Virus record (IMG/VR): IMGVR_UViG_3300031134_000001
Coordinates: 32,001-96,000 of that record
Origin: a virus
Taxonomy: Duplodnaviria > Caudoviricetes
Strand: one strand, 5' to 3'
Length of the DNA stretch: 64,000 bases
The notes beneath the pieces are model-generated. The model was not told the DNA's origin, did no database searches, and saw only the letters and a program-made list of their open reading frames with translations. Shown here piece after piece: positions 40,178 through 48,326 of this stretch. The stretch's first letter is position 1. Each line of letters begins with the position of its first letter. The position numbers and the translations under genes were made by a program.

Positions 40178-43144
40178 ATGAATCAATCGCGTAAGCCCCT
40201 TGTGCATCTTCTTTTCGTCGGCATCAAAACACCAGAATGGTGCAACGATTCTGAGAGCGGCATCAGTAAACTGCTCCATCTCATGAAATCGGAAGGCTCG
40301 GCCATCATCGCGCTCGGTGACGAAGAGATGACCGCCGTGGGTAACAACGCCGCTTTCTTGGCACTGAAACAGAAGGTTGAAGAATTGCGCTCGAAAGGCT
40401 ATAAAGCAGATCGCTGGGTGGTTGTTTCGAATAGTAACAACTTCAGGTTTATTGGCGACATGGATGGTCGCCCCATCGATTTCATTTACACGCACATTCA
40501 CCCTGGTGAAAATACGTATTTGTACGAAGATGATGAGCGGTCGCAGTATGGCAAACCACGGGCGCTGAATAACGTTTTAATGGCCATGCGTCAACAAAAC
40601 AAGCAAGCCGAGAAAAACAAACTATCGGGCCTTCTGCCAACGCTGTTGATCAAAAAACTGCTGGTCAGCATGGTGTACCATCTCAACGCTACGCCACCCG
40701 ATCGAAACAATGAGCGCGAGTTGCGCGAAATCATCGACTTTACTGAACGCCAGCTGACGCTTGGTAAGTTGTTCCCTAAGCCCGACCCTATTAACAACCA
40801 ACAACCACAAGGAACCACCATGGACAAAAACCATATCGTGCAACTGCTCAAGCTGACATGCCAGATGCTGAAGCCAGAAGAAGCGAATTCGTCGACGATC
40901 GACGGAGAAGTTGTGTGTCGTGACCTGACGTGGGTTAAAGAAAATGCAGAGACGACGCTGAAGGATATCGTACCACGGGCCACTCCGATCGTCATCGGTG
41001 AAACTCTGGTGGCACTGCAAACCATCGTCCCTCCGCACCCTCTGTATGCGGCAAAACTCACTGATGATCTCAAGCGTGTGATCAATGCGATGAAAGAGCC
41101 AGAAGCTGAAGCTAGCTCGCAGCCAGCGGATGATCAGAAAGCGCCGGTCGTTCACGTCGCGCCAATGGGTAAGCGTAAGCAAGTTGTCGAAACTTTGGCA
41201 CGCGCTATCGGCGCCATCGAAAACGGCGCCGACCTGAACGAGACCGAGAAGAAAGATCTGGTGGACGACCTCGCGTTTATCCATCGCAACTTCGACACGA
41301 TCATTCCCGAGCCCAAAGCACCGACACACCACAAGAACGTCAACCTGATTCTCGACGGCTTGAGCGATCAGAATTGGGGCAAAGATATCCAGGCGTTGTT
41401 CGACGAAATGAACAAACGTGGCGGGCGTACTTTCCAGTTCAACCAGTACGGTTTCGACACGAATCAGGACATTGCTTTCGCTGCTGAACTGGGTGACTAC
41501 CTCAAGGTTGTGCATCCCGACTCGACCTGGGTCGTCATCAAGGTTAACCCTGACGCGAAAAAGGAAGCCACGCTGGGTGATAAACCAAGCACCGTGATGA
41601 TGCAGCATTTCAAAAGCAAGGTGCTGGATCACAACGTCGCCTACTTGACCTTCACGGCGGGTATTAAATTTAGCACCATTAAGTCGTCCCTCTATCAGGT
41701 GCTGGAAAAGCATTTGCGCCGTATCGCTGGCGCGAACCAGACTGAAGAGAAAGCGCCAGAGTCCGCCACGCCAATGGCAGATGAAATCCTGAAAGCGCTA
41801 CGCAACCTGGACGTGATGCGTGAAGCGTTGATGCCTTTGTTGCCAAAGCCGTCTTCCGAACCATCGGAACTGCAAGAGTATTTGCAGGGTTGGCTGCGTG
41901 ATTTTAATGGCATGCCTCCAGGCCCTGGTGCGAACTTCCAGCGGTTTGGCCGTCTTCCACAAGGCTATGCCGATGACTGGCGCTTCAATGTCAATGGTCA
42001 TCCAGATCAACAAGGCTATGGTCCAGTCGGTGGTTGGCCAATGTCGCAACCACCTTCGTATGGACCAGGTCGCGATCCATCGCAAGAAGCTTGGCGTACA
42101 TCACGGGCACCATTCATGGATTACGCCCGTCGTCCGCAGGGTGGTTCTTTCACGGAAGAAGTGTTGAAATCATTTAAGGGTGTGGTCGCAGTGCACGTGT
42201 ATGGCACATCCGGTGAGATTGCTTTGAAGCGCTTTATGAATATTTTCCATCAAGCGCTTCCACATGCGATGCTGACTGTTGTTCAGCATCAAGACCGGCA
42301 AGAGATCTCGTTGTTGGATTTCATACAGGAAGAGGAAGCGAAAGCAAGGTTATCGACTGGTCGTAAGAGTATTTTCCATGCCACTTTTTTCCTCGCACAA
42401 AGTGATGTTGCTGCGCACCGACACCTGCAAGAATTTAAGTATCAGATGGCTATGCATCATATTCCCTGCCCATGCATCGGTGCGCATGTTGTTAACGCGC
42501 ATGCGTTGTTGAATGCGAGCGATTTTGGTTCGCAATTACTTCAGTTTATCCAAAACCCACAAAGCAACGCTGGTGTCAATAGCGATGTAAGCCATCTGTC
42601 GCCTCAGGGTCGTGACAACGTCGAAGCGATGAAGCATACTCTGGAGCGCAACGGGCTGGGACGCTATGCATCGCAACCACGCCTGTTCGACGCCTTCAAT
42701 CAGTTCGAGGGGGTGTTGGCCATTCATGCCGTCGGCAAGCACAATGCGCACCACATGCGTGCAGCGAACCTTGCCATCCAGATGTTGATTCCAAACGCAC
42801 ACGTGGAAGTGTTTGCGTATTCGCTCGACGATAACGATGGTGTCAACACGTGCGGGAAGCTGATGAAGAATGTGTCGAAACTGAAGCAGCATCAACTTCA
42901 CGTCGTGGTATCGGCGGCGCAACCAATGCCGCCTTTGCCAGCACCAGGTGTGTCAAGCAACTTGGGCTATATGCTGTATTCCGCATTGTCGACGACTTTC
43001 CGTCCGAGTAAAGGGGCCGTGACGATGTTGGCTGAAGGTGCAATCACCGGCATCACGGTGCAAGCGCTGCAAGAAGTATTTGTCAGCGTACTCTTCGGGC
43101 TCTTGGAATCGGAAGCGCTTCCTCAGCCGACGCGGCGTTTCTAA
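40178..43144 (+). CDS. Large modular early protein of unknown function
   Basis: 988 aa; AGGAG SD; internal in-frame SD and ATG at 40820; duplicated alpha/beta unit near the C-terminus. Confidence 0.85.
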   Translation: MNQSRKPLVHLLFVGIKTPEWCNDSESGISKLLHLMKSEGSAIIALGDEEMTAVGNNAAFLALKQKVEELRSKGYKADRWVVVSNSNNFRFIGDMDGRPIDFIYTHIHPGENTYLYEDDERSQYGKPRALNNVLMAMRQQNKQAEKNKLSGLLPTLLIKKLLVSMVYHLNATPPDRNNERELREIIDFTERQLTLGKLFPKPDPINNQQPQGTTMDKNHIVQLLKLTCQMLKPEEANSSTIDGEVVCRDLTWVKENAETTLKDIVPRATPIVIGETLVALQTIVPPHPLYAAKLTDDLKRVINAMKEPEAEASSQPADDQKAPVVHVAPMGKRKQVVETLARAIGAIENGADLNETEKKDLVDDLAFIHRNFDTIIPEPKAPTHHKNVNLILDGLSDQNWGKDIQALFDEMNKRGGRTFQFNQYGFDTNQDIAFAAELGDYLKVVHPDSTWVVIKVNPDAKKEATLGDKPSTVMMQHFKSKVLDHNVAYLTFTAGIKFSTIKSSLYQVLEKHLRRIAGANQTEEKAPESATPMADEILKALRNLDVMREALMPLLPKPSSEPSELQEYLQGWLRDFNGMPPGPGANFQRFGRLPQGYADDWRFNVNGHPDQQGYGPVGGWPMSQPPSYGPGRDPSQEAWRTSRAPFMDYARRPQGGSFTEEVLKSFKGVVAVHVYGTSGEIALKRFMNIFHQALPHAMLTVVQHQDRQEISLLDFIQEEEAKARLSTGRKSIFHATFFLAQSDVAAHRHLQEFKYQMAMHHIPCPCIGAHVVNAHALLNASDFGSQLLQFIQNPQSNAGVNSDVSHLSPQGRDNVEAMKHTLERNGLGRYASQPRLFDAFNQFEGVLAIHAVGKHNAHHMRAANLAIQMLIPNAHVEVFAYSLDDNDGVNTCGKLMKNVSKLKQHQLHVVVSAAQPMPPLPAPGVSSNLGYMLYSALSTTFRPSKGAVTMLAEGAITGITVQALQEVFVSVLFGLLESEALPQPTRRF

Positions 43145-43154
43145 GTAGTACCTG

Positions 43155-43192
43155 CCCAACCAGTGTAACTCTAGCTGGTTGGGTGTTTTTTT
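43155..43192 (+). terminator. Intrinsic terminator
   Basis: CCCAACCAG/CTGGTTGGG stem followed by a T run. Confidence 0.75.
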
Positions 43193-43265
43193 ACTCTGTT
43201 TCTCTTATTCAATGTCCAGAATAACGTTGAATGTTTTGCACTATAATTAACAAAAGGATCATGCA

Positions 43266-44309
43266 ATGAACGCTGTAACCAATTCTGCCCCTAAAGGCAA
43301 AGCCCGTCTGTATGCTTGCGGCGGGGCATCGATTAATATCGTGAGCGGCATTGGCGCGATGCAAATCAATCCTGATCTGCTCGCTGATCTGCTGATTACC
43401 CAAATCGACACCAGCCCATCGAACCTGACGACCCGCTCGACCAGCGTCGAGAACTACCTGATGACCATCGCAGGCAAGGTCGATGGCGGCGGCAAGAACC
43501 GCACCGAGAACGAAGCGCTGATTGAAGAACACGTCAAGCCGATTCTGAAGATGCATCCACCGGGCGACGTGAACATCGTGATCTCTACCGGCGGCGGTTC
43601 GTCCGGCTCGGTCATCGCCACCAAGCTGACCAACGAACTGCTGATCCGTGGCGAATGCGTGATCGTGCTGCTGATCGGCACGACCGGCTCGCGTATCGAA
43701 GCAAAGAACTCGATCGACACGCAGACCAACTACGAGCAGATCGCCAAAGCTCGCAATGCGCCAGCGGTCATGGTTTACATGCAAAACTCGCAGACGATGC
43801 CGCGTGAAAAGGTTAACGACCACATGCGCTCGACGATCATGTACCTGGCCATGTTGTTCTCGCGTCGCAACAGCGGTCTGGACTCGATGGACCTGCGCAA
43901 CTGGCTGTACTTCACTCGCCCAGAAGTGATCAAGGGTTTGACGCCACAGCTGTTCAGTCTGACGGTGCTGCTGCGCGAACATACGCCTGAAGGCGAAGCC
44001 AAGTTCGAAAAAGAACTCGACCAACTCGGCAACATCTTGTCGGTCGCTACCTTGGCCCGCATCGGCGGTCAAACGGAAATGCCGGAAGACTTCATGCCGG
44101 AGTACCATACCGAAGGTTTCGCTCCGGACATCAAGGACAGCAAAGTCTTTGATACCCAATCGGTGAACTTCGTGATCAGCGATGGTCTGGTACAAGGGTT
44201 CGTCACGGAACTGCGCAAGTTTGCCAAGCGCGAAAAACCGCAGATCAACACATCGACGCTGTTGGCAGACAGCGAAGATGATGACGACGCGCCTACGGTT
44301 AATTTCTGA
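43266..44309 (+). CDS. phuZ: Phage tubulin PhuZ
   Basis: YACGGASINI, DGGGKNR, STGGGSSGSV tubulin signature, T7-loop NSGLDSMDLRNW, acidic tail. Confidence 0.93.
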   Translation: MNAVTNSAPKGKARLYACGGASINIVSGIGAMQINPDLLADLLITQIDTSPSNLTTRSTSVENYLMTIAGKVDGGGKNRTENEALIEEHVKPILKMHPPGDVNIVISTGGGSSGSVIATKLTNELLIRGECVIVLLIGTTGSRIEAKNSIDTQTNYEQIAKARNAPAVMVYMQNSQTMPREKVNDHMRSTIMYLAMLFSRRNSGLDSMDLRNWLYFTRPEVIKGLTPQLFSLTVLLREHTPEGEAKFEKELDQLGNILSVATLARIGGQTEMPEDFMPEYHTEGFAPDIKDSKVFDTQSVNFVISDGLVQGFVTELRKFAKREKPQINTSTLLADSEDDDDAPTVNF

Positions 44310-44469
44310 TACCGACATGGATATAGCCATCATCGGCGGCGGTGGTGGATGGTTAGGAACCGCTCTTATAAGAGCACTCTGTGGCGGCTTGGGTCGGACA
44401 GTAGAGATCGTGAAGCTTTGTGACTGGGTAAACAAATGGTCGTTTACTCATCAACATGAAGTCATGTAC

Positions 44470-45030
44470 GGTCTATGCAATTATGAGAGCGGGGTTTACG
44501 GCGCGGGTTGCATAACCCCGTCACATCACGTTCAACAGCCCGAGCGGGCACTGGCACACAGTAAGGGTCTGTGTAAGCCTGTGATTGTCTCCGCCAACGG
44601 CCAAAGATAATGTGAACAAAATAAACCTCCGGTTATTAATAGCGCAAGTTTACGGGACTTGTAGCTAAACTTATCCCATTTAGATAAGTTTTCGAACCAT
44701 CCAAGCCTATCCGCTGCGCGCGGTATTAAGCGTCTGCCCGACGTTTGTCTGAGTCCGCAACATCGAAGACGCTTTCCTTTTACACCGCCAGCACATTGAT
44801 TCATGAATCAACAGTGTTGTGTTAGGTGATCTGCGGAGGTTGTCCTAGAACCGGATGATCGGACGTTAAACGAAGTAAACTTGGGGGCGGGACGAGCGAA
44901 GCTTTGCGAAGAGAATCACTCAGGCATGAGTGGGCGAAAATCTCTTTGCCAGCATTAGAACTCCCTTCCCCCCATTTCATCCCACTTACCTAACCGTTCT
45001 CTTCGGAGAATAATTAGGTAAGTGGATTCA
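44470..45030 (+). ncRNA. Candidate large structured non-coding RNA
   Basis: At least ten hairpins or nested helices, some with G-U pairs; no ORF with phage-like codon use; ends in a long UUCG hairpin. Boundaries are approximate. Confidence 0.5.
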
Positions 45031-45045
45031 TTTTTTTATGCCGCC
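44982..45045 (+). terminator. Long UUCG terminator
   Basis: CCACTTACCTAA..TTCTC-TTCG-GAGAA..TTAGGTAAGTGG, T7 tract, TATGCCG. Confidence 0.8.
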
Positions 45046-45147
45046 ACAGTGAAATATCACAGTAGGTAAAAACGCACTAGAAACGCTTCTAAGCGTTATT
45101 TTACTTGGCGGGTGTATTGTATACGTAACGCCGTCAAAAGGCCCCCA

Positions 45148-45624
45148 ATGGACCATAAACAACGATTGCAGCGATCTGTTTGGGTGCTCGACATCAACGA
45201 TTACATTTTGTACTTGGAAGACTGCCTTTACCGCATCTCACCCAAGTTTCCGTGGTTGTTAGATAGCCAGCCAATTGATCGTAATTGGACGTGGCAACAC
45301 ACAGATCGTTTTACTGTAGACAAGACCCAGCGAGATTACTTGATCGACTGGATCATCAAACACTTCTTGCGTGAAGTCTATCACTTCGATACCGGTAACG
45401 ATTGGAACGAAGACTTTCACGATGTTTTCAATGTCTTGTGTAGTGACTACGCCCTGCACGAATCCACCAAATACTACCTGAGTATCCCGCACGTCTACGG
45501 CGACATCTTTACTCCTCAGGTATTCCGACAATCTTGCTGGGTGTATATCGAAGCGGATATCGACCCACAACAACAAAAGATTCCAATCACACATGCCCTA
45601 CCCAAACCCATCACGCCAGCTTGA
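45148..45624 (+). CDS. Hypothetical protein
   Basis: ATG 45148 preferred over GTG 45112; aromatic-rich 158 aa. Confidence 0.7.
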   Translation: MDHKQRLQRSVWVLDINDYILYLEDCLYRISPKFPWLLDSQPIDRNWTWQHTDRFTVDKTQRDYLIDWIIKHFLREVYHFDTGNDWNEDFHDVFNVLCSDYALHESTKYYLSIPHVYGDIFTPQVFRQSCWVYIEADIDPQQQKIPITHALPKPITPA

Positions 45625-46549
45625 AGTCCATCATTCGTTTATCTCGGATGTGTTTGATGTTGCCCATTACATCCAGGGCGTGCTTGAACCTGTTCTGAAA
45701 GCGCCTGAAGCTGGTTTGTATTTGCCTGGTCAAGTCGATCCAGTGCTACGGGCTGATCGTGAGTATTGGTACCAAGAACCAATCTCGATCCAGCAGGCCA
45801 GCCGTTCGGTAGCAGTGCGTACGTTTGATGCGCCTTACAATCCGTCCCCGTATCACACGGGTCCTTTGGTGCAGCTGCACAACCAGCCATGGCAATACTA
45901 CCGTTACAACTACATCCGGGTAAACGACTTAGAACAAGTCATTACCTCGCCGTGGGATGTGGTGGAAATGCCGCACGGTTTTATCCCGCCTTACTTCAGT
46001 CCAACTGACGACATGTCCGGCACGGACGCATTGCCGATGCGGGTAGCATTAACGTCACACCTGGCGCACATGTGTTCACTGACGCCCGACGTGCCGTTTG
46101 CGGGCATCAAGCTCGCTAAGCTCATGCTCGACAATGAGATCGTTGCTACGCGCAGCTTTAACCCATCGCCCGGTAAGACCATCGAACAGCTGATCACGCC
46201 ATTCATTAGCGAGCACTACCTGCCGCCCGATTTGTCTGATTTAGACAAATACGAGCACATCCTCGAAGATGCTTGGTTCCGGCGCGCCATGAATAAGATT
46301 TGCGAAAGCATGGCTACCGTTCTGGCCCCCTTACGCAATGGCTTGTATGGCGACTCGTACCAGATGTTCACGGCGCAATACCAAGATGGCTTTACCATCC
46401 GCATTGATCAGCTGGGCGACTACCGCATCCACGAGTGGGAACGTATCGTGAACGATCCTGAATATCAACGTTGGTTGCGTGCCAAAGCCGATGGTAGCTG
46501 GTACCGCGTTCCCGTAGCTGATGCTTACGATTCTAAACTTCATCTCTAA
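45593..46549 (+). CDS. Hypothetical protein
   Basis: 318 aa; IDQLGDYRIHEWER motif; coupled operon. Confidence 0.8.
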   Translation: MPYPNPSRQLEVHHSFISDVFDVAHYIQGVLEPVLKAPEAGLYLPGQVDPVLRADREYWYQEPISIQQASRSVAVRTFDAPYNPSPYHTGPLVQLHNQPWQYYRYNYIRVNDLEQVITSPWDVVEMPHGFIPPYFSPTDDMSGTDALPMRVALTSHLAHMCSLTPDVPFAGIKLAKLMLDNEIVATRSFNPSPGKTIEQLITPFISEHYLPPDLSDLDKYEHILEDAWFRRAMNKICESMATVLAPLRNGLYGDSYQMFTAQYQDGFTIRIDQLGDYRIHEWERIVNDPEYQRWLRAKADGSWYRVPVADAYDSKLHL

Positions 46550-46551
46550 TC

Positions 46552-46935
46552 ATGACCATATCGCAGGAGTTGTTTAAGTTACCGTTTGATCCTGTCATGC
46601 AGTCTGTCGAGATGGGGATGGAGCCGCTATCAGCGTTGGCCAAGTACAACATCGTGATCCGCACCTTTATCGAGTACCTGCTGGAAGAACTGAGCGTGAA
46701 GATCTCGGACCAGTACGCGACGTCGCCGATTGATTTAGCCGTGGCGTATCTGAAACAGAACTACGTGGATGAGGAATACGCGCAGCGGTTTAGCCACCAC
46801 GTTCTCGACGCGCTCATGACGACCGTGATCGGTTACTTCCCGTCGATCTCACACCAGACGCTATCGGCTGCCCGGTACGTACTCGATCAAGATAACATCA
46901 CTTTGTTGGTTTACATGCAATACAAAAACCCATGA
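46552..46935 (+). CDS. Hypothetical protein
   Basis: 127 aa, coupled. Confidence 0.8.
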   Translation: MTISQELFKLPFDPVMQSVEMGMEPLSALAKYNIVIRTFIEYLLEELSVKISDQYATSPIDLAVAYLKQNYVDEEYAQRFSHHVLDALMTTVIGYFPSISHQTLSAARYVLDQDNITLLVYMQYKNP

Positions 46936-47324
46936 ACCAATTACTTATTGACACCGCAGGCGCGCTTGATCAGTTCAAGCGCTTGGAGCACACGTTTGAT
47001 TTCTATCCAGCCGGGTTTGTTGGCTTGATCTCAGACATGCTGAACTACCACATGAGCAATCCGGACAGCAGTGAAGATGCTGACCAAATGTTCATGGACA
47101 CGGTATTAGAAGCGTATTACACGTCAACCAAATACCAGGCCACATCTGCATCACCAGAAGACCCAGCCATTGAAAACTTAATTGCTTTGGCTTTACTCAT
47201 GATTAACCACACCACCATGCATTTCGTGCGGTATCATCGTAACACGCTGTCGCTGTGCGAAGTCGATTCGCAGTCCATCGAGCTGGGTTCGTCATTCGAA
47301 TACATTTTGTTGAAAAGAAAATAG
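46932..47324 (+). CDS. Hypothetical protein
   Basis: 130 aa, ATGA overlap. Confidence 0.75.
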   Translation: MNQLLIDTAGALDQFKRLEHTFDFYPAGFVGLISDMLNYHMSNPDSSEDADQMFMDTVLEAYYTSTKYQATSASPEDPAIENLIALALLMINHTTMHFVRYHRNTLSLCEVDSQSIELGSSFEYILLKRK

Positions 47325-47332
47325 GAGGTTGT

Positions 47333-47746
47333 GTGGCACTGGGCGAACAATACATCGTGAACTTTTCAGAAGCCATCGACCTCTTCCAAAAGCGGATGGC
47401 GGCCGATGATTTACCTACCATTGATTTAGATGTTGTGAAGTGGCGTGTGATGGAAATGTGGGAACAGAAATACCCACTGCGTCATTTGGAATTAGTTGTG
47501 GATGACATGCTCAGACACGACTGGTTGTATGCCAAAGAAGAGTTTGTTGATACTACTCCTATGCGAGCTCGTCAGAAAAAAATTCAGTTGAACCAATATC
47601 TGCGCACTTGCCTCATTGAACTTGGTGTTAATCTGCACGCCAAGCTTCGGGAGATGGGCATGCTTACTTCAGGCACCGAACGTTATCGCGTCACCCTACG
47701 GCCACTAGACAATGAAACTTACACCTTACGACAGACTGGGAGTTGA
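47333..47746 (+). CDS. Hypothetical protein (putative paralog set)
   Basis: AGGAGG SD before GTG 47333; LREMGMLTSGTERY motif. Confidence 0.75.
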   Translation: MALGEQYIVNFSEAIDLFQKRMAADDLPTIDLDVVKWRVMEMWEQKYPLRHLELVVDDMLRHDWLYAKEEFVDTTPMRARQKKIQLNQYLRTCLIELGVNLHAKLREMGMLTSGTERYRVTLRPLDNETYTLRQTGS

Positions 47747-48326
47747 GTATCCGCCTCCGTCAGTAGAAACGCCTTTGCAGATCAAGTACCCGGACTACTA
47801 CATTTTGAAGATTGACGACATCGTCGACGACTTCATCAAGCAGTGGGATTTCATCATCACCACCGAAATCATGGAGCATCCGATTGACTCGGATGTGGTG
47901 CTGCCTGAAGTGTACACCATCGGTCAAGATGGCACGCTGCACAAAACCGTGTACTTCGCCCAGCACGTATCCGAACGCGTCAAGCCTTGGCATCCAGACA
48001 TCAGCATTATTCTGGCAGCCACGATCGAGACCATCAAGGCCAAGAACGAAGCAGAAACAGACATGGATCTTGTCATGGGGTCGCTCTGGGTGGACGTAGC
48101 GTACATGGCCGATATTCATATTCGCTCGAACGTGGGTGAACTCCACGTGAACAGAGCCATCACCGGCGCACGGCGAGCTATCGCAAAGCTCTCTACCCAA
48201 TTCGGCAAGAAAATCTATCAACGACTCATCGAGTACGGCTTGTACAAACAAGGCTACTTCCCGTACCACTATGTCGGTTGGGAAGACGAATGCGCGATCG
48301 TTGCGCTCGATGACACACACAGGTGA
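47712..48326 (+). CDS. Hypothetical protein (putative paralog set)
   Basis: 204 aa; LIEYGLYKQGYFPY motif. Confidence 0.8.
   Translation: MKLTPYDRLGVEYPPPSVETPLQIKYPDYYILKIDDIVDDFIKQWDFIITTEIMEHPIDSDVVLPEVYTIGQDGTLHKTVYFAQHVSERVKPWHPDISIILAATIETIKAKNEAETDMDLVMGSLWVDVAYMADIHIRSNVGELHVNRAITGARRAIAKLSTQFGKKIYQRLIEYGLYKQGYFPYHYVGWEDECAIVALDDTHR

Follow-up and report, generated by a model that had tools for sequence, protein, structure and literature searches.

The genome of an uncultured, nucleus-forming giant phage raises the question of what lies directly behind its tubulin gene, phuZ. The window analysed here is a stretch of 64,000 nucleotides (nt), namely bases 32001-96000 of an IMG/VR virus record that is 271 kb long and carries direct terminal repeats. 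About 840 nt separate phuZ from the next sizeable open reading frame (ORF) on the + strand, which opens with an ATG at 45148, and the sole long frame in this interval is a small ORF at 44317-44610. An original prediction had placed here a non-coding RNA of about 560 nt, a large structured phage RNA of no described class.

We find a structured RNA of about 550 nt on the + strand, which extends from about 44490 to 45037 and ends at a conserved intrinsic terminator. It is very likely that this is a functional RNA. The predicted large structured RNA outside the described classes is borne out by covariation in about 12 lineages, the lack of an Rfam match, the assignment to the + strand, the terminator and contigs from RNA libraries. 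The RNA is likely not an independent gene, however, but the 3' domain of a transcript that would also carry phuZ and the small ORF.

A structure maintained by compensatory changes

The sequence 44470-45030 folds better than its dinucleotide shuffles (+ strand, z-score -3.8, with 0/100 shuffles as good), and the - strand reaches a z-score of -5.0. Since both strands fold well, the energy indicates structure, not the strand that carries it.

Relatives were taken from contigs of PhuZ homologues, from two pattern hits and from an alignment-based scan of IMG/VR. Homologues of PhuZ that are 54-87% identical in the protein collection led to related contigs, and the alignment-based scan yielded the loci L020-L024. 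A single-protein scan of IMG/VR found no relatives, a DNA search of GenBank phages gave no match to the locus, and one candidate from a pattern scan of metagenome contigs (L013) turned out to be a false positive. About 12 distinct metagenomic jumbo-phage lineages were obtained, represented by the window with L017 and L002, and by L004, L015, L006, L007, L016, L014, L009, L010, L021 (identical to L012) and L023.

Compensatory base changes occur in five helices or helix groups (coordinates in Table 1). For hairpin B2, hairpin A, hairpin H0, and helix P1 with the terminator, the counts were made on MAFFT alignments not fitted to the structure; as controls, columns were shuffled 500 times and the pairing partner was slid by 1-3 columns. 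None of the shuffles (0/500) attains the covariation score in any of the counts, and pairing falls to 15-65% when the partner is slid. All cells of B2 are paired (100%), with compensatory changes in 5 of 7 pairs; for hairpin A the figures are 98.9% and 7 of 9. H0 has 92.9% of its cells paired and 3 of 4 pairs compensatory, as illustrated by the variants GCCG/CGGC, GUCC/GGAC and CCCG/CGGG. The terminator is 98.6% paired, nine of its 18 pairs being invariant and three compensatory, and taken together with P1 the figure is 98.9%. Anchored on the flanking invariant motifs alone, P1 pairs over 6-8 positions in 13/13 lineages and occurs in five sequence variants, including UGGCGGGG, UGGGGGAGG, UGGAGAGG and UGGAGGGG. 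Compensatory changes thus uphold four parts of the predicted structure: the GCCC/GGGC helix (H0), the ACACAG/CTGTGT helix (hairpin A), the nested domain at 44882-44974 (D3) and the UUCG terminator at the end.

RNAalifold independently recovers hairpin A and its second copy A', the latter with compensatory pairs at alignment positions 106-120, 107-119, 108-118 and 109-117, and in the long-form group it finds five nested helices, P1-P5, in the 3' domain.

Two covariance models were built, R1 from the B block (8 seeds) and R2 from the C block together with D3 (6 seeds). With R1, family members reach 72-80 bits and the window 77 bits; the model matches 12/12 other lineages and recovers the non-seed loci L014 (4e-8), L016 (5e-4), L009 (2.5e-3) and L023 (8e-21). 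R2 recovers the non-seed loci L015, L021, L023, L010, L014 and L009 at 1e-15 to 9e-6, in which the C block, D3 and AUUUC are found together. Jointly, the two models recover every left-out relative, and they do so on the + strand only; in the window, R2 reaches 146.5 bits on the + strand versus 13 on the - strand. The helices contain many G-U cells and almost no A-C cells, a pattern that fits an RNA of the + strand only, and the terminator, too, has its U-run on the + strand.

Architecture of the RNA

The alignments show near-invariant nucleotide blocks with variable hairpins in between (Table 1). The conserved features are one or two hairpins with a purine-rich (U)UAAGGG loop and a 3' bulge (A and A'), the B block, the 29-nt C block and D3, the internal loop of which is conserved in both of its motifs, CGAAGC and AGCAUUAGAA. 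Hairpin A' is absent in the short forms L009, L010, L014, L021 and L023. The terminator hairpin is present in all relatives and is followed by a U-run and AUGCCGUC.

Table 1. Coordinates of the phuZ locus, of the RNA and its elements, and of related sites (aa, amino acids; bp, base pairs).
Feature	Position	Strand	Description and basis
phuZ (tubulin, 347 aa)	43266-44309	+	upstream gene of the transcription unit; ORF list
Small ORF (97 aa)	44317-44610	+	coupled to the phuZ stop; no gene caller calls it consistently
Hairpin H-1, CGGGGTT/AACCCCG	44490-44520	+	GC-rich, inside the small ORF
Hairpin H0, GCCC-GAGC-GGGC	44538-44549	+	covariation
Hairpin A	44553-44579	+	3-bp outer stem, 6-bp inner stem, conserved loop UAAGGGU, 2-nt 3' bulge
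Hairpin A'	44641-44666	+	second copy of the hairpin A architecture, loop UUACGGG, 3' bulge UA; RNAalifold
Variable hairpin V1, AACTTATC/GATAAGTT	44667-44692	+	alignment
B block	44706-44759	+	CCUAUC, hairpin B1 (44711-44723), UAUUA, hairpin B2 (44728-44746), UGUCUGAGUC
Variable region V2	44760-44853	+	38-99 nt in relatives; palindrome TTGATTCATGAATCAA at 44797-44812; alignment
C block, GAUGAUCGGACGUUAAACGAAGUAAACUU	44854-44882	+	nearly invariant 29-mer; columns in 12-13 lineages
D3	44882-44974	+	long irregular hairpin, helices P1-P5; P1 is UGGGGG/CCCCCA; internal loop CGAAGC opposite AGCAUUAGAA
Intrinsic terminator	44982-45037	+	12+6 bp stem and cUUCGg loop (44982-45025), U7 (45031-45037)
TATGCCGC	45037-45044	+	late-promoter-like motif of the next transcription unit; outside the RNA
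TATGCCGY sites in the window, examples	12631, 13600, 26327, 29801, 45037	+
TATGCCGY sites in the window, examples	51749, 39218	-
Gap after phuZ, Erwinia phage Ea35-70	L025:2758-3059
Gap after phuZ, Proteus phage 10	L028:2758-3032
Gap after phuZ, Klebsiella phage Eowyn	L026:2752-2945

The weakest conserved element is H-1. Single-sequence folds place a GC-rich hairpin at this site in each relative, with a different sequence and register, so that the predicted CGGGGTT/AACCCCG helix stands as a GC-rich hairpin but not in its register. Similarly, all long-form relatives form a hairpin at V1, its stem sequence wholly different in each. The V2 palindrome has a counterpart in L004, CTGATTCATGAATCAG, in which the outer pair is altered on both sides, and the other lineages have unrelated hairpins. 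What had been predicted as a AACTTATC/GATAAGTT helix (44669-44692) and as a palindrome therefore marks positions where every relative has a hairpin, but the sequence differs.

The C block, a 29-nt element with the consensus GAUSAUCGGACGUUAAACGAAGUAMAYYU, has no supported pairing partner, and when the phage genome was searched for complementary sites, the block itself was the only match. A small UCG/CGA helix proposed for it by RNAalifold is broken in L006 and L009. Long-range pairings noticed by eye were inconsistent across the relatives and were dropped; they joined GUCYG to CRGAC, CGGAU to AUCCG, the C block to the loop of the terminator, and ACCUCC to the loop of hairpin A.

Several predicted elements did not survive the comparison. 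The long-range helix AACCTCCG/CGGAGGTT is disrupted in L017 and L002, which are the closest relatives, and the others lack it, and AAGTTTA/TAAACTT clashes with the conserved hairpin A'. The pairing AAGCGTCT/AGACGCTT is confined to the clade of the window, the conserved helix at this place being the local hairpin at 44728-44746. The GGTCTATGC motif proposed to mark the start of the RNA occurs 8 times versus 10.35 expected and is not conserved in relatives, and the contigs from RNA libraries start upstream of it.

The small ORF and the 5' boundary

A small ORF follows phuZ in every relative, mostly through an ATGA overlap, and the frame 44317-44610 is probably translated and translationally coupled to phuZ. 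Its N-terminal part of about 40 aa is conserved (hhhGGGxLGAA) and includes a glycine-rich, hydrophobic N-terminus, IAIIGGGGGWLGTALIRAL. Differences between relatives fall on the three codon positions as 990/701/1180 in the N-terminal part, which is coding-like, and as 518/523/530 near the C-terminus, which is flat. Non-synonymous changes exceed synonymous ones in comparisons of close relatives (20 to 6; 9 to 6). An AlphaFold2 model has a mean predicted local distance difference test score (pLDDT) of 52.8 and shows a single helix plus a disordered tail, residues 60-97 scoring below 50; searches of Pfam and PHROG with the small ORF gave no family match.

The codon that reads the loop of hairpin A lies at residue 80-86 of the small ORF in all lineages. 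L023 retains the stem of hairpin A with a UUUGGGU loop and has lost the K-G residues encoded there; hence these residues are not what is conserved. The stops of the small ORF are scattered from 14 to 164 nt past hairpin A, the longest extension (164 nt) being that of L010. To judge from these patterns, the last third of the ORF is apparently shaped by RNA structure rather than by protein function, and is unconstrained as protein. The RNA domain starts within the small ORF, near 44490, and its first 120 nt or so (44490-44610) overlap the ORF. Translation of this frame without structural conservation had been named as an outcome that would speak against an RNA; the frame does look translated, and the structure is conserved.

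Distribution among nucleus-forming phages

Common to all relatives is the gene order phuZ, small ORF (in most cases overlapping with the stop of phuZ), 280-540 nt devoid of genes, and a gene of 142-170 aa. Gene tables and alignments agree on the full series of phuZ, coupled small ORF, RNA, terminator, TATGCCG promoter and 142-170-aa gene. The RNA itself is about 550 nt long in the window; its length in the relatives is about 400-570 nt.

Such a stretch after phuZ is absent in L024 (PhuZ 33% identical), in the Xanthomonas phages RTH11 and LucasX, and in phiKZ. Neither R1 nor R2 matches the phuZ regions of these phages or those of Burkholderia phage FLC9, Erwinia phage Ea35-70, Klebsiella phage Eowyn or Proteus phage 10. 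The best GenBank relative of the PhuZ protein comes from FLC9 (37% identical by tblastn, which matches annotated tubulin PhuZ in 185 phage records). The RNA family is confined to one clade of nucleus-forming jumbo phages.

The RNA in metatranscriptomes

The stretch is present in DNA runs from phyllosphere, straw, dairy, food-production, wastewater and plastic samples, and also in several RNA libraries. Metatranscriptome contigs were placed on positions 41000-48000. A phyllosphere metatranscriptome (X15) contains a 608-nt contig at 44367-44972 with a depth of 9.3, compared with 2-4.4 for contigs of the neighbouring genes; this contig carries a compensatory double change in H0 (44541 C>G plus 44546 G>C). 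A freshwater metatranscriptome from another study (X18) contains a 260-nt contig at 44706-44965 with a depth of 11.4 and has no other real match in the 7 kb. Both contigs end at 44965-44972, short of the terminator hairpin, which may reflect 3' processing or a limit of assembly, and we leave this uninterpreted. Two further libraries (X19 and X20) have one 151-nt contig each at depth 2, and neither these nor the runs X16, X17, X22 and X23 were used as evidence.

Comparison with known RNA families

At gathering thresholds, Rfam 15 gave 0 matches in the whole window and 0 in nine related loci. The families covered include GOLLD, ROOL, OLE, HEARO, tmRNA, RNase P, 6S, SRP, group I and II introns and ribozymes, and the proposed check against large phage RNAs such as GOLLD and ROOL thus returned no known family. 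At E<=10, the region 44200-45250 had four chance matches only, to eukaryotic microRNA and small nucleolar RNA models and to PhotoRC-I, all far below threshold.

Like GOLLD, ROOL and OLE, the RNA is several hundred nt long and phage-borne, has many covarying helices and conserved unpaired stretches, is mostly devoid of coding capacity and does not betray its function by its sequence. Unlike these RNAs, it matches no Rfam model, occupies a fixed place behind phuZ and a small ORF rather than the tRNA-rich context of GOLLD and ROOL, and occurs in one clade only. ARAGORN detects 0 tRNA or tmRNA genes in the window.

The RNA also resembles stable RNAs derived from 3' untranslated regions (3'UTRs), insofar as it probably lies at the 3' end of a coding transcript, would share the intrinsic terminator of this transcript and is seemingly more abundant than the coding part. 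In contrast to typical 3'UTR-derived small RNAs (sRNAs), it is several times longer and lacks seed-like complementarity elsewhere in the phage genome. A CsrB/RsmZ-type sponge for CsrA/Rsm proteins was considered and rejected: there are only one or two such hairpins per RNA, GGA is not universal, and loops with AAGGG, UUGGG or CGGGG are as frequent as those with AAGGA.

The sRNAs described for phiKZ-like phages, e.g., sRNA005 of 201phi2-1 and sRNAgp182 of phiKZ, were filtered to less than 250 nt, and the conserved member is derived from a 5'UTR upstream of a tail gene (PMC11512511). The present RNA shares with them conservation, structure and a syntenic position beside conserved genes of giant nucleus-forming phages, and it differs in its length of about 550 nt and its location 3' of phuZ. 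The literature on sRNAs of phiKZ-like phages yielded none of this kind or position, and in phiKZ itself only 54 nt lie between phuZ and gp40.

The cultured phage FLC9 has an unannotated gap of 770 nt after phuZ (LC667451.1 7020-7789; L018:3485-4254), which folds with a z-score of -4.9. It contains a 79-aa ORF running through a hairpin with a UAAGGGA loop, and a terminator followed by UUUAUGCCGU. A DNA search of GenBank found no relative of this gap. Homology to the present RNA was considered because of the hairpin A-like element and the terminator/TATGCCG likeness seen by eye, but R1 and R2 do not match the gap.

Possible functions

With its string of hairpins whose loops and bulges are conserved, its invariant unpaired 29-mer, its conserved internal loop and its terminal stem of conserved sequence, the RNA has the look of a protein-bound RNA. 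The best overall explanation, which we regard as evenly poised, is an undescribed RNA family that forms the 3' domain of the phuZ-small ORF transcript, is stable and serves as a protein-binding scaffold or decoy. Since neither a terminator nor a conserved promoter was found between phuZ and the RNA, the simplest reading is that phuZ and the small ORF are co-transcribed with the RNA as their 3' domain. The RNA would then accumulate by stability or processing, either released from the transcript or persisting as its 3' end. Its conserved features would constitute binding sites for one or more proteins, and the RNA would function as a ribonucleoprotein (RNP) scaffold or decoy during infection. 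This scaffold or decoy mechanism, taken by itself, is a tentative proposal that falls somewhat short of probable.

Several observations weigh against this interpretation. The loops contain GGG more often than GGA, so that a known motif such as that of CsrA/Rsm is not indicated. The identity of the RNA to distant relatives is 50-68%, no higher than the 68-76% of phuZ DNA; the conservation signal consists of near-invariant blocks and compensatory change, not of an unusual overall identity. D3 is 87.7% paired, with compensatory changes in 17 of 26 pairs, in an alignment that was itself fitted to the model. Moreover, the sequences share descent, and the shuffle controls overstate significance and are not to be read as probabilities; the number of independent double changes is nevertheless large. 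Finally, the contigs document presence in RNA libraries and an excess within a run, not ends, strand or level; they may stem from DNA carried over into the libraries, and the runs were found by using this very stretch, which entails an ascertainment bias.

The main rival is a purely cis-acting 3'UTR, which would shield the phuZ-small ORF mRNA from 3'-5' decay or RNase E, or control its translation, termination or localisation. What speaks for such a role is the position immediately after two coupled genes, from which neither a terminator nor a conserved promoter separates the RNA, together with the hairpins H-1, H0 and A within the end of the small ORF; the structured gap of FLC9 would fit a cis function linked to phuZ. 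Yet, a protective end requires a terminator hairpin alone, whereas here about 430 nt with invariant unpaired sequence and conserved loops extend past the ORF. Furthermore, contigs of the element are deeper than phuZ contigs in the same run, and phiKZ and several other phages have phuZ genes without the element. On balance, we consider an exclusively cis-acting role rather unlikely. Both this role and the RNP scaffold or decoy are interpretations, which the existence of the structured RNA is not.

A decoy directed against host defence or RNA machinery represents a special trans-acting case, in which the RNA would mimic CRISPR repeats, a Shine-Dalgarno/anti-Shine-Dalgarno duplex or an RNase substrate. 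The defences that nucleus-forming phages face are mainly those that target RNA. Purine-rich AAGGG/AAGGA loops cap the repeated hairpin units A and A', and P1 reads GGAGG/CCUCC in most lineages. In phiKZ, an inhibitor of the RNA degradosome, gp37/Dip (PMC4980113), is encoded two genes upstream of phuZ (PHIKZ037). However, no repeat or target sequence was identified, GGAGG/CCUCC has become GGGGG/CCCCC in the window's own clade, and GGA is not universal in the loops. Such a mimic appears improbable.

An element acting at the level of DNA, i.e., a replication origin, a packaging site or a promoter/terminator cluster, would be compatible with the - strand folding as well as the + strand by energy and with a genome full of hairpin-plus-TATGCCGY units. 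It is highly improbable in view of helices that tolerate G-U but not A-C, a model (R2) that matches the + strand only and RNA contigs that cover the element; moreover, the cumulative GC skew shows no turn at the locus, and no further copy of the element was found in the phage genome.

Least probable of all is unrecognised coding, either by extra small genes or by a longer small-ORF product arising through frameshift or readthrough: although the small ORF enters the structure and runs 164 nt past hairpin A in L010, and the - strand of the window has ORFs of 52-90 aa, no + strand ORF of at least 45 aa exists at 44611-45111, where all three + frames are stopped after 44610, the conserved blocks translate in differing frames among relatives and on both strands, which marks them as not coding, the ORF stops vary, codon periodicity is missing over the 3' third of the ORF, and there are no family matches.

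The protein-binding RNA may be thought of more broadly as the core of a new RNP specific to nucleus-forming phages, one of a wider set of fast-evolving "phuZ-3' RNAs" that act in a process peculiar to these phages. This extension is speculative and distinctly unlikely as it stands, and the structured 770-nt gap of FLC9 suggests that such a wider set may exist. If it holds true, the phage nucleus, which is free of ribosomes, would be where these RNAs are synthesised and can fold undisturbed, and their roles might include RNA traffic across the shell, positioning of the spindle or nucleus, or shielding of exported mRNAs.

In nucleus-forming jumbo phages, transcription is kept apart from translation, and for the question of how these phages handle their RNA, a large, conserved and apparently abundant RNA tied to the tubulin gene provides a concrete new molecule. 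The RNA is a well-supported addition to the short list of large structured RNAs without known function. Two working covariance models and about a dozen members suffice to seed an Rfam entry and wider searches, and both the RNA and the small ORF leading into it escape the gene callers.

Promoters, terminators and neighbouring genes

The genome contains 36 TATGCCGY sites, compared with about 18 in shuffles, and about 28 of these lie 2-4 nt past a strong GC-rich hairpin. The late promoter of phiKZ is TATG, with G as +1 (PMC4666361). The combination of hairpin and TATGCCGY is a generic terminator-plus-late-promoter unit that resembles this promoter, and TATGCCGC, which belongs to the genome-wide set, accordingly initiates the next unit and lies outside the RNA. 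At the 3' end, the hairpin, U7 and the TATGCCGC behind them are in keeping with the hairpin-plus-TATG units of phiKZ-like phages, yet such a unit accounts for the last 60 nt only, and the stem found here differs from those of the other units in being long, AU-rich and conserved in sequence across relatives. Ea35-70, Proteus phage 10 and Eowyn have gaps of 190-300 nt after phuZ, which contain a GC-rich hairpin and then (T)TATGCCG within the first third to two-thirds; the unit is hence common to distant chimalliviruses.

A sigma-70 promoter scan gave nothing useful near the RNA. A TTAC core in conserved GATTAC "DY" codons, about 20-30 nt upstream of 44467-44476, is a candidate internal promoter of the middle type, the spacing of which to an ATG is inconsistent among relatives.

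The genes at 45148-45624 and 45593-46549, which follow the RNA, are kept in all relatives and have no Pfam or PHROG family match. The leader of the first of them (45045-45147) is likewise conserved in all relatives and comprises a hairpin with a U-run (45082-45097), TTATTTTAC and, about 20 nt later, GTATTG/GTATG. In phiKZ, the middle-promoter motif is AAanTTACc at -24 plus TATG (PMC4666361). By its resemblance to this motif, the leader may provide the next gene with a middle-like promoter in addition to the late-like one, or may act as an attenuator. Upstream of phuZ, at 43150-43265, a terminator hairpin (CCCAACCAG...CTGGTTGGG and a T-run) is followed by TTTTTTTACTC and, about 24 nt later, by AATG; the region of TTTTTTTACTC is a possible middle-type promoter of the unit composed of phuZ, the small ORF and the RNA.
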